NCBI GenBank assembly: GCA_038046625.1
Contig: JBBSVV010000003.1
Coordinates: forward strand, 8,993 to 72,992
Direction of reading: 5' to 3'
Source of the DNA: an archaeon
GTDB lineage: Archaea > Iainarchaeota > Iainarchaeia > Iainarchaeales > Iainarchaeaceae
Length of the DNA stretch: 64,000 nt
Below, piece after piece: positions 51,001-57,000 of this stretch (the stretch's first letter is position 1; each line of letters starts with the position of its first letter). A program made the position numbers.

Positions 51001-54000
51001 GTGATGTTTTTCTGCCCCACCACCTCGCTCAGTTTTTTTGGCCTGTATTTTTCAATCCAGGGGAGCTCTATGCCTACGTCCATTATTGGATGTGAAATCA
51101 TAATAGTTTTAAACCGATTCGCACCCCTTTTAGTAGGTTTTTCATGGATTCGAAGCACCTAAAGGTTTTGTTTGTTTTCGCGCTTGTGTATGCCGCGCTT
51201 TATGCGCTTGGAATGATAATCGGGCCCCTGCAGGACTGGAATTTTTCCCTTGATTTTTCGAGGCTTGATTACACGCTTTACTTCCTGCCGATTGCTGGGT
51301 TCTTTTTTGTGTATTTGCTGGTCCCATGGATGCGCGAGGAGCTCGGCTTTGGAAACACCTTCCTGTACATTTTTCCGGCGCTTTTAGCGGTCTTTTCCTA
51401 CATTGCTTTTGTGGTTGCGGTTTACTATTATTTCGGGAACCAGGCCTCGCTTTCCGGGGTCGACATTTCGGTTTTCCGCCTGGATTATTTTTCGCTTTTC
51501 CTCCAGTCCTCTTACATTTACTTTGTGCTTGCCGGAATAGGCGGCTGGGCCGCGCGCATGCTGATTGAGAATTTCGATGAAATGCCCAAGGAAAAAGGTT
51601 CGGGGAAAAAATCCCGCGGCGAAGGCGGGCACGAAATCAGCTCGAAACTTATTACAGGTGATTAACCCATGAGAATTCACGTGGAGGGCTATGGCTGTTC
51701 CATGAATCTCGCGGAAACCGAGATGATTCGCGGCCACGCGAAGGAAAACGGCGCCTCTATTGGCTCTGTTTCGGATTCTGATTTTCTTGTTGTGAACACT
51801 TGCGCTGTGAAGGAGCAGACCGAATTCAAGATGTTGGGCAGGATACGCAAACTCAATCAGGCCGCGGAAAAAAATGGTTCGCAGCTCATTGTTTTCGGGT
51901 GCCTGCCGAAAGTCAGCCCGCATCTGATAGAGGGGATCTCGCCCAACATAATCCAAATGGGCCCGGACCTTGAAAAGCTTTCCCAGGTTCTCGGAATAAA
52001 GGAGGCGCCTTTCTCGCCTTCAATCAATGCTTTGCGTGACAATCCTAACGTAACCATAATGCCGATAAACAGGGGCTGCACAAATTTCTGCACTTTCTGC
52101 GGCACCAAGTTCGCGAGGGGCAACGTGAATAGCTTTCCCATTGAGCATTTGAAGCGGCGTTTTGTTTCTTCGCTTCCTGATTCAAGGGAATTCTGGCTCA
52201 CGAGCCAGGACACGGGCGCCTATGGCCTTGACATTGGAACCTCGCTCCCTGAATTGCTGCGCGGGCTTCTCTTGGTTCAGGGCGAGTACAGGATAAGGAT
52301 AGGGATGATGAATCCGCATCACCTGAGGCGCATTTATGATTCGCTTGTGCCGCTTTTTTCCGATGGCCGCGTTTACAGGTTCCTGCACGTTCCGTTGCAG
52401 GCGGGCTCCAACAGGATACTTGCCTTGATGCGGCGCGGCTACACTGTTGAACAGTACTATGAACTAATTGGGGATCTTCGCAGGGATGTTCCGGACATTA
52501 CCATTGCTACGGATGTGATTGCGGGCTTTCCAACGGAAACGGAGGCGGAATTTTCTGAAACCCTGAAGGCAATAAAGGAAACCTCGCCGGATATCGTGAA
52601 CATTTCCAGGTTCGGCGCGAGGCCCGGAACAATTGCTGCTTCGATGGATGGGCAGCTGCACGGCCGCATAAAGAAGGAGCGGAGCAGGAGGCTTGCCTCG
52701 CTGTGCAGGGCAATTTCTTTCAGGCAGAACGGGCGCATGCTCGGCAAAACTGAAAGGGTTTTTGTGAGCGAGGAAGGGGTAAAGGGCAGGTTTATGGGCA
52801 GGTCCTCAAACTACAAGCCCGTAATCATAAGCGAGGATTTAAGGGGCAAATTTGCTGATGTGGAGATAACCTCGGTTTTTCCCACTTACCTCGAGGCGAA
52901 GGTAATTTCAGCCGAAAGGGAAAAGCCTGTTCTCAGGGGCTTGTTGGCTGCCAAATGAGCAAATATGCTATAATTTTAGCCTTAAGGATTTATGAGGCAT
53001 CAATGATGCCTCGGCAACCGCTCCTTCAACGAATTGAACAATGGGAGAAAAGGCCGCAAATATTCATTTGTTCAATTCGTTGCCGGCGAGCACCCTTCCA
53101 GAACGGAGTTCTGGGGGCCTCGCAAAGCAATTGCTTTGCAAGGTGGCCGGGGTGAATGTTTTTAATATCTTCCAAATACACGTATTTCAGGGTTTATTGG
53201 CATGGATTTGCGCGGAGCATTGAACAGGTATCTGAAGAATTTTTCCACTGCATTTTCTTTCGTTTTGCTTTTGGTGTTCGTTCTTCCATTCATTCTTGGC
53301 AAGGAGGGCGAGTTTCTTGCGAGTTCCTTTGTTTCCTCGGCAACCGTTTTCATTGACTATGGGTTCATCAACGAGCCGCTTCTTAACTCGGCCCTTCTTC
53401 TCGCGCTGGCGTTTGTTTTCCTTTTCTGCTACTCCGTGCTTGTCTGCCTAATGGTTCTTGCGGTGAGAGGCGATTTGAGCAACGTGAAGATGAATAATTA
53501 CCTCGCGGAAAAAATCGGGAAGTTCGCTTTCAGGTACTTCAGGTTCCTCGCGCTCTTCACGATTATTGCGTCCATTGCGGGGGCAATTCTCATTGCTTAC
53601 GGTCTGCCTATCTGGGTGCTGAATTTGCTGCTGATGTTTTTGTCGGCTTCGTTCCTTTTCTTGCCCCAGACAATCGTGGTTGATGAGGAAAGCCTGGGCA
53701 GCTCCATTTTCAGGAACTGGGACTTCATTTCGAAGAACATGTTTTCTTTTGTGCAGGTCCTGGCCCTCGGAGTCGTGAGCCTGTTCCTGCTCCAGCTCAT
53801 AGAATTTGCCCTTGATTACTTCTTTTTTGTCGGGAGCTTCGTTTCCCTGCTCATCGGGGTTGTTTTCCTCGTGCCTTTCATCGAGGTGGTGAAGACACAG
53901 ATTTACATGCACCGGTTCGGCCTGATCAAGAGCTATCATCCTTCAGGCTGAGCTTTACGGCCGGGCAGTCGTTCAGCAATTCAAGCGCCTCCTTCATTGT

Positions 54001-57000
54001 TTCGGCCACGTAAACAAACCCGTATTTTCTCTTTTGCCTTGTGCCCCTCATGCTGAACAGCATTTCCTGCACCAGTTTTCTGTCCTCGTGCAGGCCGAAC
54101 CTGCGTTCGGCTTCAGGTTCCGGCATTTCCATTGCGGCCAGGTTGTGCCTGTGAATCAGCGCAATTATGTCGTCCGCGAGCTTCGGCGCGTCCGCAACGC
54201 CCATTGTTTCGGCGCAGCGCTTTATTCCGGCAAGGCTTACAGCGCCAAGGCTTTTCAGGAGCATCCATTCCTCGAAGTAAGGCCTTGCCTTCAGCCCCTC
54301 CTTTTTCTTTTCGCATAATCCTGAAATTTTTTCCGCAATAATCTCCAGCCTTTCAATGAAGCGCTCCTCGTTTCCTGATTCCAAAGCTATTTTTTCCAGG
54401 TTTATTGCGGTGAGCTGAAGTACGCCGTCCGCGTTCCCGGTCAATACTCCAAACTGGTACGCGGTGGTTTTTTCGCTTGAGTTGTTCAGCACCAGTGCGT
54501 TGTTGAGGCCGCTTTTTTCGAGCAGCTTGAGCTGGTACTTGGAGTCGATTGATACGCTAAGTTCGAACTCTTCCGGGTTCGAGGAAAGCAGCATTGCCGC
54601 AATGGCAGTCGCGTTCTCCTTTCTCTTTGAAAGGCCTTCCCATTCGTAGCCGCTGAAGAGCGCAAGTTCGGCGCAGCGCTTCCCCGTAATAGAGAATATT
54701 TTTTCTGTCTCCAAGATTTCTTCGCGGAGTTTCCTCGGGTTCACGGGCTTTTCCGGCGCGATGGAAAAATTGAATGCCTTCAGCGTAACCGGGTTCGTGC
54801 AGAACCTGTCGAGTTTTGCGGCCTCGACAGGCGTCGCATAAGTTTTTTCCCCTGCAAAGAATTTCGAGTGCGCAAAAGTTTTCGTGGAAAAATCTTCGGC
54901 ACCGTAAATGTGTATCGTGCCGTTGAAATGCAGTTCCCTCGCGTCCTTTGTTATGGCTGAGAGCCAGTTGTACTCCCTGAGTATTTCCCTGTCCTCGAAC
55001 AATCCTGCGTTCAGCCTCTTTTTCACCTCGAATACCGGGAGGCCGAGGCGCACGTACTGGCCGTGTATCGGCTCGTGGCCGTATTCAAGCAGCTTCACGT
55101 TCACCATTTCGCGTATTATATGGGTGTTCAGATACCCTATTTTCAGGTCCTTTATCTTGTCCTCCACTTCGCTCCCGATTTTTTCTGCAACGTGCCTGCT
55201 GATGCCTGTTTCCTTGAGCAGCGACTTGATTATGTTGCCGCGGTCGAAAGACTCGAGCTTTTCGCGTGAAGTGAATACCTTGAGTTCCTCGAATGAAATG
55301 AATGTTTTTGCCGCCTCGGGATTGAGCTTTTCGAGCGTTTCCGCGGCCTTTCTCCTGAGCTGCTTTTCCCCGCCTTCAAAAGATTCGAGCTCCTTGATTA
55401 CCTTCACCACTTCCCACTTAGTGGCGCCGCTCTCCTGGCATTCGAACGCTATCCTCTGTATTACTTCGCTGATGGGTTTTTTCTCTTCCACAGATGCTTT
55501 TAGTTCAAAAAAGTTCTTTAAATTGCCGCATCCTCTTGTATTTTTTACTATCGAGCCCTCAAAAGGCGAAGATAGTTGCCCCAACGGGTCGGCAGCAAGA
55601 AATGTTGGGCGTATATTCATTTGTCGACCCGTTGTCCGCCGTGGGCCTGCGGCGCGAAACTGTTGTTCGGAAACTTAACTTTTTAATGCCTTGGGTGTTT
55701 GAATAGTAAATAGGCTGTTTTTGCGGGGGTTTTATTCGTGGAGGTGCTTGACAAGATTGACCACAAGATTATCCAGTTGCTTCTCGAGGATGGGCGCGCG
55801 TCGTTCAGCACAATTGCAAAGGACGTGAAGCTCACGGATGTCGCGATAAAGAAGCGTTTCGAGCGCCTCAAGAGGCGCGGCGTGATTACCGCGATTTCCG
55901 CGGATTTGAACCTCAGGGCCCTTGGCTATGAAAACCCGATTTTTGTCCAGATAAGGAGCGAGCTCTCGAAGAACAAGGATGTCGTGAAAAAGCTCAAAGA
56001 GCTGGATTACATACTCGAGCTGCATCAGGTTCTCGGCGAATACAACCTTGTCGCGAAAATTGTTGTTCCCGACCTTGATTCCGCGGAAAAGTTTGTGGAG
56101 CGCCTCGGAACCATTGACGGCGTTCTCGACATCAAAACCCTTGTCGTGATTTCCGAAGTGAAAAAGTCAAAGTCGCTTCCTTCATTTTCATTCCAGAAGA
56201 AGCTCGCGTGAGATTTTGAATTCAGTTTTTTTGTGGTTCTTTTAAAAATTTGTTGATGCCACAAATCTTCTTTATTTGGGTCGGGGTGATTGGCTTTGCT
56301 GAAAATGATTATTGCGGAAAAGGCAATTGCCGGGCAGACAATTGCCTCGATTCTCGCGGGCAAAAGCGTTGCCGCCTCGAGCGTTGGCTCGGCGCAGGCA
56401 TTCCGGTTCAAGGCAAACGGAAATGACTGCATTGTTTTTCCCCTGCGCGGCCACATAAGCGATGTCGAGTTCCCAAAGAAGTACAGTTACTGGGTCGGCA
56501 CGGATTTGAAGAAGCTGCTTCACGCCGAAATAGAGTACGCGGGAAAGGAAACCGCAATCATTGCCGGCCTGAAGGGCATTGCAAAGGAATGTGATGAGGT
56601 AATTATTGCGACCGATGCCGACCGCGAGGGCGAAAGCATAGGCGTCGAGGCCCTGAATTACCTGAAAGAGGCTAACCCCAAAATAAAATTCAAGCGCGCC
56701 TATTTCTCCGCAATCACAAAGAAGGACATTGACAAGGCATTTTCAAGCCTCTCTGAGGTTGACTATAATTTCGCTGATTCCGCGGACTCGCGGCGCGAAA
56801 TAGATTTGATTTGGGGCGCCGTGCTCACGAGATTCATTTCCCTTGTTTCGGGGAAGCTTGGCAAGGATTATTTGAGTGTTGGCCGCGTCCAGACGCCCAC
56901 GCTTGCAATCATAGTAAATAGGGAGAAGGAGCGCCTTGCATTCAAGGTGAAGCCGTACTGGGAGGTGCTCGCGCACTTCAAAAAGGATTCCATTGCCTTT

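Follow-up and report, generated by a model that had tools for sequence, protein, structure and literature searches.

A catalytically dead class III ribonucleotide reductase beside an Lrp regulator: a candidate two-protein regulator of ribonucleotide reductase genes in Iainarchaeia

We describe an archaeal gene that encodes a shortened class III ribonucleotide reductase (RNR), here called pseudo-NrdD, which by its motifs has lost catalysis, is maintained by selection and is transcribed divergently from an Lrp/AsnC-family regulator. A putative operator shared by lrp and working RNR genes suggests that Lrp controls RNR genes; with pseudo-NrdD as nucleotide-sensing partner, the two proteins would form an RNR regulator, a reading to which we give about an even chance. 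The pair probably acts as a switch for the supply of DNA precursors, one that appears undescribed: neither a dead class III RNR, whether Lrp-paired or wHTH-fused, nor an Lrp RNR regulon was found in the literature searched (main texts, few subscription papers).

Positions refer to the window, the whole 64,000-nucleotide stretch of DNA that was analyzed. The ORF at 53926–55620 (minus strand) was confirmed. As the initial annotation had proposed, the true start lies about 45 residues downstream of the call, at GTG 55491 (V44 of the called ORF); relatives begin there, and the resulting protein has the same length as the congener protein P0002. The features of the locus are:

53926–55491, minus strand: dead class III RNR (pseudo-NrdD), 521 amino acids, from its start, fold, lost motifs and selection
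55285–55491, minus strand: helical remnant of an outer ATP-cone (four helices, model residues 8–68), beta-cap lost, with the motif ECxEAGAxKW
55078–55284, minus strand: inner ATP-cone, the most conserved part (conservation 0.77), with the motif VxTS..E.FDRGNI..SL.KET...IRE, from Pfam and structural Z
53944–55008, minus strand: degenerate 10-stranded RNR barrel (conservation 0.38–0.44), which stops before the zinc ribbon and glycyl-radical domain
54454–54486, minus strand: finger-loop deletion site, where about 10 residues are gone, among them the QCC motif found in the intact orthologue (hhalign against P0122; alignment)
55517–55522, minus strand: TATA-like hexamer, 26 bp upstream of the GTG start, the putative promoter of pseudo-NrdD from its sequence and its like place in relatives
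55665–55679, plus strand: GTTCGGAAACTTAAC, the putative operator of Lrp (family consensus GTTYG-N5-CWAAC), immediately before the TATA box of lrp
55680–55687, plus strand: putative lrp TATA box (TTTTTAAT), which follows the operator immediately on its 3′ side and is conserved there in the training loci
55738–56211, plus strand: Lrp/AsnC-family regulator, 157 amino acids, divergent from pseudo-NrdD (Pfam)
53202–53951, plus strand: convergent membrane-protein gene with no Pfam family, a block neighbor outside the system

A scan for sigma-70 promoters, whose model is not meant for archaea, gave nothing useful.

The Pfam matches reported earlier were recovered, both under the cut-off: ATP-cone (PF03477) at E 1.8e-5 and NRDD at E 0.0023. 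A PDB sequence and profile search with pseudo-NrdD returned nothing under E 0.1. The structural model, built from a 102-row alignment (pLDDT 94.7, pTM 0.90), finds class III RNRs throughout its top Foldseek rows at the 10–13% identity previously noted (best E 3.8e-12), and VIA aligns 352 of its residues to 4con (Z 23.3, rmsd 3.3); both comparisons place the 10-stranded alpha/beta barrel of class III RNRs in pseudo-NrdD. Archaeal NrdDs of the QCC/MGCR type (PF13597, TIGR02487; 4con, 8p2c, 9d3x) share this fold, the ATP-cone and the barrel topology but are about 700–790 amino acids long, and they have the catalytic elements that pseudo-NrdD lacks.

What is missing is the catalytic parts. The finger-loop cysteine motif, described for NrdDs as MGCR, MCCR or QCCR/A (bioRxiv 10.1101/2022.04.23.489257), occurs in 0 of 120 homologues, the segment being deleted relative to the intact NrdD that genome G003 carries at the same locus. 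The NxN active-site flap (PMC12662201) is gone, with a 15-residue gap opposite ENAN of the G003 protein in hhalign. The TPAES/YYTN and HIHD motifs are missing (YYTN, 0/120), a CxxC falls within the last 80 residues of a single homologue of the 120, and the strict glycyl-radical loop R[IV][TV]G[YF] is found in none; the zinc site and radical loop are thus absent, as claimed. A loose RxxG[YF] is rare, as stated earlier, though our recount in the last 80 residues gives 10 rather than 13 of 120. FxRGNI, by comparison, is present in 119/120. All 19 invariant columns of the 102 rows fall within residues 16–240, and beyond position 240 no polar residue is invariant. None of the 19 is Cys, so the reported lack of a conserved cysteine holds for invariant and catalytic residues, but C17 (85/102) and C336 (70/102) are common non-catalytic ones. 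The motif evidence confirms the view of the initial annotation that this is a class III RNR without finger-loop Cys, flap, zinc ribbon or glycyl loop, whose catalysis appears to have been lost.

The inner cone closely resembles the cones of NrdR and NrdB (Z 11.8–11.9, rmsd 1.8; Z 11.8 to 7p37). It is the inner member of an ancestral tandem pair, since the outer remnant (mean conservation 0.61) aligns with the outer cone of two-cone relatives and with that of G003; inner ATP-cones are often non-binding. Solved cones have K9 and R10 in a hairpin and K21 in helix 1 (E. coli numbering; PMC12662201). With the register set by motif spacing rather than superposition, these are replaced by T73 (90/102), S74 (98/102) and N85 (102/102), and the equivalents of the adenine Glu (E15) and ribose-packing Ile (I22) are kept as E79 (91/102) and I86 (102/102). 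Invariant R83 and R126, with K/R132, could substitute for the lost charges. Of the earlier proposal of a (d)ATP-sensing pseudo-enzyme, the pseudo-enzyme stands; (d)ATP sensing does not follow from a cone without K9/R10/K21 equivalents.

Among the measurable pairs of nine, dN/dS is 0.03–0.15 in the N-terminal part and 0.08–0.29 in the barrel, most pairs being saturated, and reading frames are open in all copies seen. By these estimates pseudo-NrdD is under purifying selection in both halves. The gene has also been cleanly lost many times. That genomes of about 1 Mb retain a 1.6-kb gene for a dead enzyme argues for a real job.

Pseudo-NrdD is widespread in the class, as the earlier count of 34 of 61 genomes had indicated: 57 of 101 match, 56 with a dead gene plus G003. 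The sister-order matches do not cover the cone only, as had been thought, but are whole syntenic genes, of about 500 amino acids in G001 and G005, 370–420 in family f21, whose copies lack much of the barrel, and 786 in the intact NrdD of G003. The last aligns with the pseudo-NrdD family over 492 columns in hhalign (P 99.9, E 6e-37). We consider the two orthologous on the basis of synteny and the shared truncated outer cone, because a quick 70-row tree of NrdD-like proteins was unusable (5 rows lacked the anchor motif, 3 were mis-extracted and the dead Iainarchaeia rows formed long branches). An old duplication, with dead beside intact gene as in G102, may lie behind this relation. L104 is a dead copy. 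Pseudo-NrdD is present in several phyla, and a second archaeal phylum holds 27 dead copies. In five genomes of that phylum the dead gene precedes a working nrdD at a distance of up to about 3.5 kb; in L300/L301 the order is lrp<>nrdJ>dead. Relatives are annotated "anaerobic ribonucleoside-triphosphate reductase." The separate class II reductase noted previously is present in the genome itself (contig C38, 5′ end cut off), but relatives do not always have one: the 56 genomes with a dead gene have another intact NrdD in 28, a class I/II large subunit in 26, both in 2 and none found in 4, for which reason we rejected a tie to one RNR class.

The neighboring Lrp matches PF01037 (AsnC_trans_reg, E 8e-16) and PF13404 (HTH_AsnC, E 6e-12), both over the cut-off. 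The association noted earlier in 8 of 13 loci extends much further: Lrp is divergent and adjacent in all 57 class genomes and in 25 of the 27 second-phylum loci, and in 21 of 25 partly redundant metagenome loci. An lrp orthologue is found in 96/101 class genomes; its tree has too few paralogues to show one clade, and inspection by eye showed no Lrp residues that set apart the genomes with the dead gene. The pair sits inside a larger conserved gene block. The membrane-protein gene is indeed a conserved neighbor (85/101 genomes, convergent), but the specific link that had been suggested was rejected, since it belongs to this block and is retained where the dead gene is deleted. In structure prediction, pseudo-NrdD with two Lrp chains scored 0.37 (best of three controls, 0.00), the runs agreeing in at least 86% of contacts with partner pLDDT of at least 78. 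On a benchmark whose counts apply only roughly here, the mark was reached by 116/157 solved complexes and 2/215 mismatches; both mismatches did so with scores of 0.60 or less, as did only 18 of the 157 complexes. The prediction hints that pseudo-NrdD may contact the Lrp dimer.

The putative operator is a 15-bp semi-palindrome that scores 19.2 bits, more than any other of the genome's 882 upstream regions, when the matrix is trained on 29 genomes that do not include this one. At a threshold of 10 bits or more, it precedes working nrdD/nrdJ in 32 of 54 regions in the class and, with the matrix unchanged, in 7 of 15 in the second phylum (the doubtful starts of G183a and G177 both kept), against backgrounds of 22/882 and 7/72. 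The shared site is no NrdR box, and we tentatively assign it to Lrp. Two genomes encode an NrdR-NrdD fusion, G130 with a match over the cut-off and G009 with one below it; the dead gene is deleted in both, and both carry NrdR-box-like sites. Does the operator depend on pseudo-NrdD? In a first set of genomes it was found at 28/45 working RNR regions with the dead gene versus 4/30 without (including L046, L051 and L172, rescored with corrected starts at 12.5, 13.5 and 2.3), a contrast carried by few lineages (families f5, f9 and part of f6) and opposite in f4. A matrix trained on genomes without the dead gene gave 31/43 versus 5/29. Hold-out genomes showed no contrast (4/9 versus 4/7 at 10 bits; G143, with no upstream DNA, and G116, where lrp is missing too in an assembly gap, omitted; starts of G120 and G131 uncertain), and six genomes (G027, G031, G051, G117, G123 and G132) have the operator at nrdD despite having no dead gene. 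Because an exact-pattern scan of 21 genomes of family f1 gave 79 matches, many inside genes, versus 53 for a reversed control, the genome-wide regulon is undefined.

We envision that an Lrp dimer binds GTTYG-N5-CWAAC at its own promoter and at those of the cell's RNR, whether that enzyme is of class II, of class I type or a further class III reductase. Pseudo-NrdD, with neither a DNA-binding domain nor chemistry, would bind Lrp, and its conserved cone region would relay a signal from the nucleotide pool that switches Lrp occupancy. The sign is probably repression, because the sites overlap the BRE/TATA or start region. A 15-bp semi-palindromic site with an A/T-rich center beside a TATA box, and autoregulation, fit the archaeal Lrp/AsnC (feast-famine) family, whose HTH and RAM domains the neighbor shares; an RNR regulon and a pseudo-enzyme partner for this family were not found in print.

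The pair would do the job of the RNR repressor NrdR in bacteria (TIGR00244; PMC9110341), which likewise has an ATP-cone. NrdR has operators at its own and RNR promoters, as proposed here for Lrp. Unlike NrdR, pseudo-NrdD has no zinc ribbon with RRRR motif, NrdR box or K50/R51/K62 equivalents, retains a whole dead barrel and would leave DNA binding to the separate Lrp; TIGR00244 has no match in its genome. Also related are the wHTH-ATP-cone-dead NrdD fusions of other archaea, including Asgard (P0195, P0209; HTH_5/HTH_20/DUF7347 on P0195), which share with it the cone subtype and the dead class III body. Their chain includes an ArsR-like wHTH, and most retain the zinc ribbon, whereas pseudo-NrdD has neither (no Pfam HTH family) and pairs with an lrp gene, and so may be their unfused counterpart. 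The betaherpesvirus RNR large-subunit homologues UL45 and M45 have also lost catalysis and kept a non-catalytic role, but these are class I, viral and act in immune signaling, with no origin or function shared with pseudo-NrdD (PMC5469499).

Could Lrp act alone? Pseudo-NrdD might then be a regulon member at the ancestral nrdD position with a separate non-catalytic job, such as buffering nucleotides, serving as a scaffold or modulating some other protein. Against pseudo-NrdD as the sensor, Lrp itself contains a ligand domain. In genomes without the dead gene, Lrp persists in 39 of 44, with unchanged within-family identity, and keeps its own operator in 13 of 20; the hold-out set likewise shows no dependence on the dead gene. 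Moreover, Lrp faces an intact nrdD in G003 and L296, which explains the adjacency without contact. We nonetheless consider this explanation rather unlikely, given that adjacency is kept in two phyla with differing other neighbors, that the wHTH fusions suggest regulatory use of the same dead body and that the complex score, weak as it is, is clear of controls. Control could instead be post-translational, with pseudo-NrdD acting on the working reductase as a heterodimer or as a cone in trans. Selection on the barrel, the dead genes within RNR operons of the second phylum and the apparently coneless NrdJ of family f1 (one ATP-cone match in the genome studied here, where the NrdJ 5′ end is missing) would fit, but one conserved surface is unlikely to suit partners as unrelated as another NrdD in 28 genomes and class I/II enzymes in 26, making this improbable.

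It is also conceivable that pseudo-NrdD is not dead but performs new chemistry, or is an enzyme, of class III RNR or another type, to which a separate glycyl-radical peptide adds the missing part in trans. The fold is intact, and many working NrdDs of the class have the glycyl loop on a separate ORF of 45–90 amino acids. However, no glycyl loop on any real gene was found in the genome (84.6% complete), and neither a glycyl ORF nor the activase NrdG was found there or in family f1 (best TIGR02495 match in this incomplete genome, 21.8 bits against a cut-off of 131, exceeded in G003 only of five genomes tested). With the finger-loop Cys, flap, TPAES/YYTN and HIHD gone, much of the barrel missing in f21 and no invariant polar residue in the distal part, we regard activity as very improbable. 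The same holds for the idea that the gene is a relic in slow decay, kept in position by the conserved gene block: the many clean losses and a barrel far less conserved than the cone are in its favor, but dN/dS well below 1 in both halves largely refutes it, and the open frames of all copies seen, the 19 invariant columns and the presence in several phyla also speak against it.

If Lrp and pseudo-NrdD do work together, the pair may, more tentatively, be an ancient, multi-phylum archaeal counterpart of NrdR. A class III RNR would first have moonlighted as an Lrp sensor, the state of G003 and L296, then lost catalysis and, retained solely as the nucleotide-sensing subunit of Lrp, steered later-acquired RNR classes, possibly also cdc6; elsewhere the dead body would have acquired a wHTH by fusion or given way to NrdR.

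According to PMC9110341, NrdR serves bacteria but only part of the archaea. How the majority of archaea adjust RNR expression to their dNTP pools is an open question, for which this locus offers a regulator with its putative site and a protein that may be the sensor. Relatives of pseudo-NrdD would be miscounted as working anaerobic RNRs by annotation. If the proposal is true, pseudo-NrdD would exemplify, in a cellular organism, the conversion of an RNR into a pseudo-enzyme, and its neighbor would be an Lrp driven by a protein partner.

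The open reading frame named in the initial annotation is present in the window, and the proposal that translation starts about 45 residues downstream of the called start agrees with relatives, which begin approximately 44 codons in; starting at GTG 55491 yields 521 amino acids, the length of the congener's protein. We number residues from E45 of the called ORF. Judging by the names that its homologs bear (Diapherotrites, Iainarchaeota), the genome would belong to Iainarchaeia, a DPANN class. The features discussed are:

53202-53951, plus strand: membrane gene, convergent with the dead nrdD
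53926-55620, minus strand: called ORF of the dead NrdD (pseudo-NrdD)
55665-55679, plus strand: putative Lrp site (operator), consensus GTTYG-N5-CWAAC
55738-56211, plus strand: lrp, divergent Lrp/AsnC regulator gene, 157 amino acids

Pfam detects an ATP-cone (E 1.8e-5) and NRDD (E 0.0023) in the dead NrdD. Three fold searches were run with a structure model built from a 102-row alignment (pLDDT 94.7), and in each of them class III ribonucleotide reductases (RNRs) ranked first: Foldseek gave E 3.8e-12, VIA gave Z 23.3 at an rmsd of 3.3 over 352 aligned positions, and a wide search gave Z 20.8. The stretch from residue 65 to 149 superposes on the cones of NrdR and NrdB (Z 11.8-11.9).

Judged by its sequence, the dead NrdD is a catalytically inactive class III RNR. 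The loss of catalytic parts is observed by comparison with G003, a genome of another order whose corresponding locus (miaB > membrane gene >< nrdD <> lrp > topA) encodes an intact 786-aa NrdD. This protein retains its zinc ribbon as well as the QCC finger loop and the RITGY loop, and G003 NrdG scores over the cut-off. Aligned to it by hhalign (P 99.9, 492 columns), the dead family has the NxN flap and ~10 finger-loop residues, including both cysteines, deleted, and its C terminus stops short of the zinc ribbon. Among 120 homologs, the strict glycyl loop, finger-loop motif, YYTN and HIHD were each absent and a C-terminal CxxC occurred in one, bearing out the earlier description of a degenerate barrel without zinc site or glycyl-radical loop. 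The accompanying claim that no cysteine is conserved stands for the finger loop but not for C17 (85/102) and C336 (70/102), which are common; both lie away from the loop tip, and our copy has Asn336. In G003, about four tandem 26-bp repeats lie between nrdD and lrp (L067).

Since many working NrdDs of the class are split, a small ORF of 45-90 aa that sits between nrdD and nrdG encoding their glycyl-radical loop (L037-L051), completion in trans was checked. Neither a separate glycyl-loop ORF nor NrdG was found in our genome (84.6% complete), making activity in trans very hard to credit. Nor is the dead NrdD a relic, a reading to which we give hardly any weight: all 19 invariant columns of the 102-row alignment fall within residues 16-240, and selection is evident in dN/dS against the congener (0.043 N-terminal, 0.23 barrel) and in the other measurable pairs of nine (0.03-0.15 and 0.08-0.29, mostly near saturation). 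The inner cone is the most conserved part, with a mean of 0.77, against 0.61 for what is left of the outer cone and 0.38-0.44 for the barrel; a strongly conserved N-terminal cone had been described at first.

By alignment, the conserved cone is the inner member of an ancestral pair of tandem cones, and it is not a textbook sensor. The residues used by solved cones are K9, R10, E15, K21, I22 and H59/Q79 (PMC12662201, PMC9110341); with the register set by motif spacing, the dead NrdD has T73, S74, E79, N85, I86 and R126. Inner cones are frequently non-binding, according to a further study (bioRxiv 10.1101/2022.04.23.489257). The invariant R83, G84, N85 and R126 mark a constrained surface, whether for nucleotide or for protein.

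Matches to the dead NrdD occur in 57 of 101 class genomes (56 dead, one intact), and a broader profile added no further class genomes. Intact NrdD accompanies the dead gene in 28 of the 56, a class I/II subunit in 26 and both in two; in four, no other RNR was found. Loss of the dead gene is real and repeated, and after loss the membrane gene and lrp directly adjoin. Two genomes lacking it (G052 and G088, family f7; 85-88% complete) yielded no RNR of any class. In family f21 (L070-L074), dead copies of 370-420 aa have lost much of the barrel and kept both cone regions; G022 has two loci. Among the best 150 of 1051 profile matches, dead NrdDs far outside the class are DPANN-type, two-cone or wHTH-fused; the wHTH-fused ones come under the names Promethearchaeota/Jordarchaeia and carry active-RNR annotations. 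Bacterial cone-plus-degenerate-NrdD clusters (P0190, P0201), commonest in Planctomycetota, show similarity of 0.93-0.94, by features only.

The Lrp neighbor, originally counted in 8 of 13 loci, is divergent and adjacent in 57/57 class genomes. Inside the class, synteny of the surrounding block might account for this, but in a second archaeal phylum 30/31 genomes match the dead NrdD and lrp faces the dead gene at 25/27 loci, as it does at 21/25 metagenome loci (partly redundant). There, the dead gene lies a short way upstream of working nrdD in five genomes (G102, G174, G186, G187, G188). Other gene orders seen are lrp <> nrdJ > dead copy (L300/L301) and lrp <> intact nrdD > nrdG (L296). Class genomes without the dead gene retain lrp in 39 of 44 cases, with the same identity within families. 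Our genus has a lrp/dead-gene spacer (55525-55650) that exceeds those of other family members by ~110 bp. A second, distant Lrp-like HTH regulator (58736-59293) is a further conserved gene of the block, with topA on one side and an NFACT-like gene on the other.

The lrp/dead-gene intergenic DNA contains a conserved 15-mer that abuts the lrp TATA box on its 5′ side. Scored with a matrix derived from 29 genomes other than ours, our site reaches 19.2 bits, the highest of 882 upstream regions, 22 of which reach our 10-bit mark, as do 7/72 neighboring-gene regions in relatives. Of 20 genomes that lack the dead gene, 13 still have the 15-mer at lrp, some of them with a perfect palindrome, so it is best read as a putative site for Lrp. 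Within the 260 bp upstream of working RNR genes, 28/45 regions from genomes with the dead gene reached the mark, versus 4/30 from those without, the low scorers among the 45 including genes within operons. This contrast persists with symmetric matrices, with a matrix from genomes without the dead gene (31/43 versus 5/29) and in family units (13 versus 9, p ~0.004, overstated because kin are not independent). It was not replicated in hold-out genomes (4/9 versus 4/7); pooled, the counts are 32/54 and 8/37. Applied without change to the second phylum, the matrix detects the operator at several of the lrp promoters, with scores as high as 19.2 bits though not in every subgroup, and, often flanking TATA, at 7/15 working nrdD regions at 10 bits and 10/15 at 9 bits.

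Our own nrdJ promoter lies beyond the contig end. In family f5 (L215, L216, L223, L224), the lrp promoter site is lost and lrp follows the membrane gene within one operon; the RNR genes come 5-8 kb downstream, beyond topA and cdc48. Translations of Cdc48 (60106-63975), NrdJ (G000:C38) and a secretion-type ATPase (42989-46228) each contain an apparent intein. The Lrp matrix also reaches 10 bits upstream of cdc6/orc1 in 8/30 genomes (L436-L465; our G000:C6:6379, 15.7) and matches one MCM promoter (L421). Most of these upstream regions share a separate conserved element just downstream of the match, GGAAGTGGTT..TTCCACAAC, perhaps a Cdc6 site.

We infer that Lrp would bind the operator at its own and RNR promoters and that the dead NrdD would be a partner subunit reporting nucleotide status, and we give this model an even chance. 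The sequences themselves show that catalytic parts are lost, that selection acts, that the genes are linked and how the sites are distributed; DNA binding, protein contact, ligand and sign belong to the inference. A predicted complex of dead NrdD with two Lrp chains scored 0.37 (best of three controls, 0.00), with at least 86% of contacts agreeing between runs and partner pLDDT of at least 78. In a calibration that is rough for this pair, the mark was reached by 116/157 solved complexes and 2/215 mismatches; scores at the mark but no higher than 0.60 included only 18/157 solved complexes and both mismatches, and the prediction offers weak support for contact. The Lrp C-terminal tail LPxxxLQK[KR]L (56160-56211), whose Gln is present in at least 90% of the 36 rows compared, is conserved and resembles a clipped PCNA-binding motif; genomes that have lost the dead gene keep it too.

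Since dependence on the dead gene was not replicated in the hold-out and lrp is kept without it, we regard an Lrp-RNR regulon as well supported and a part for the dead NrdD in it as less so. That Lrp acts alone while the dead NrdD has another job is a serious if less probable reading; that the dead NrdD acts on working RNR is improbable.

Only two NrdR-like genes were found (G130, 197 bits, over the cut-off; G009, 77 bits), both fused to nrdD and with NrdR-box-like sites upstream; the two genomes belong to one family, and each has the dead gene deleted. At L268:853-1701 (G130:C29) and L226 (G009:C4), NrdR is in frame at the N terminus of a class III RNR. The dead NrdD does not qualify as an NrdD or as an NrdR but would work like NrdR. 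In a literature search that lacked most subscription papers, neither a dead class III RNR nor an RNR regulon under Lrp was found described. If the partnership between dead NrdD and Lrp is true, it would be a new kind of regulator.
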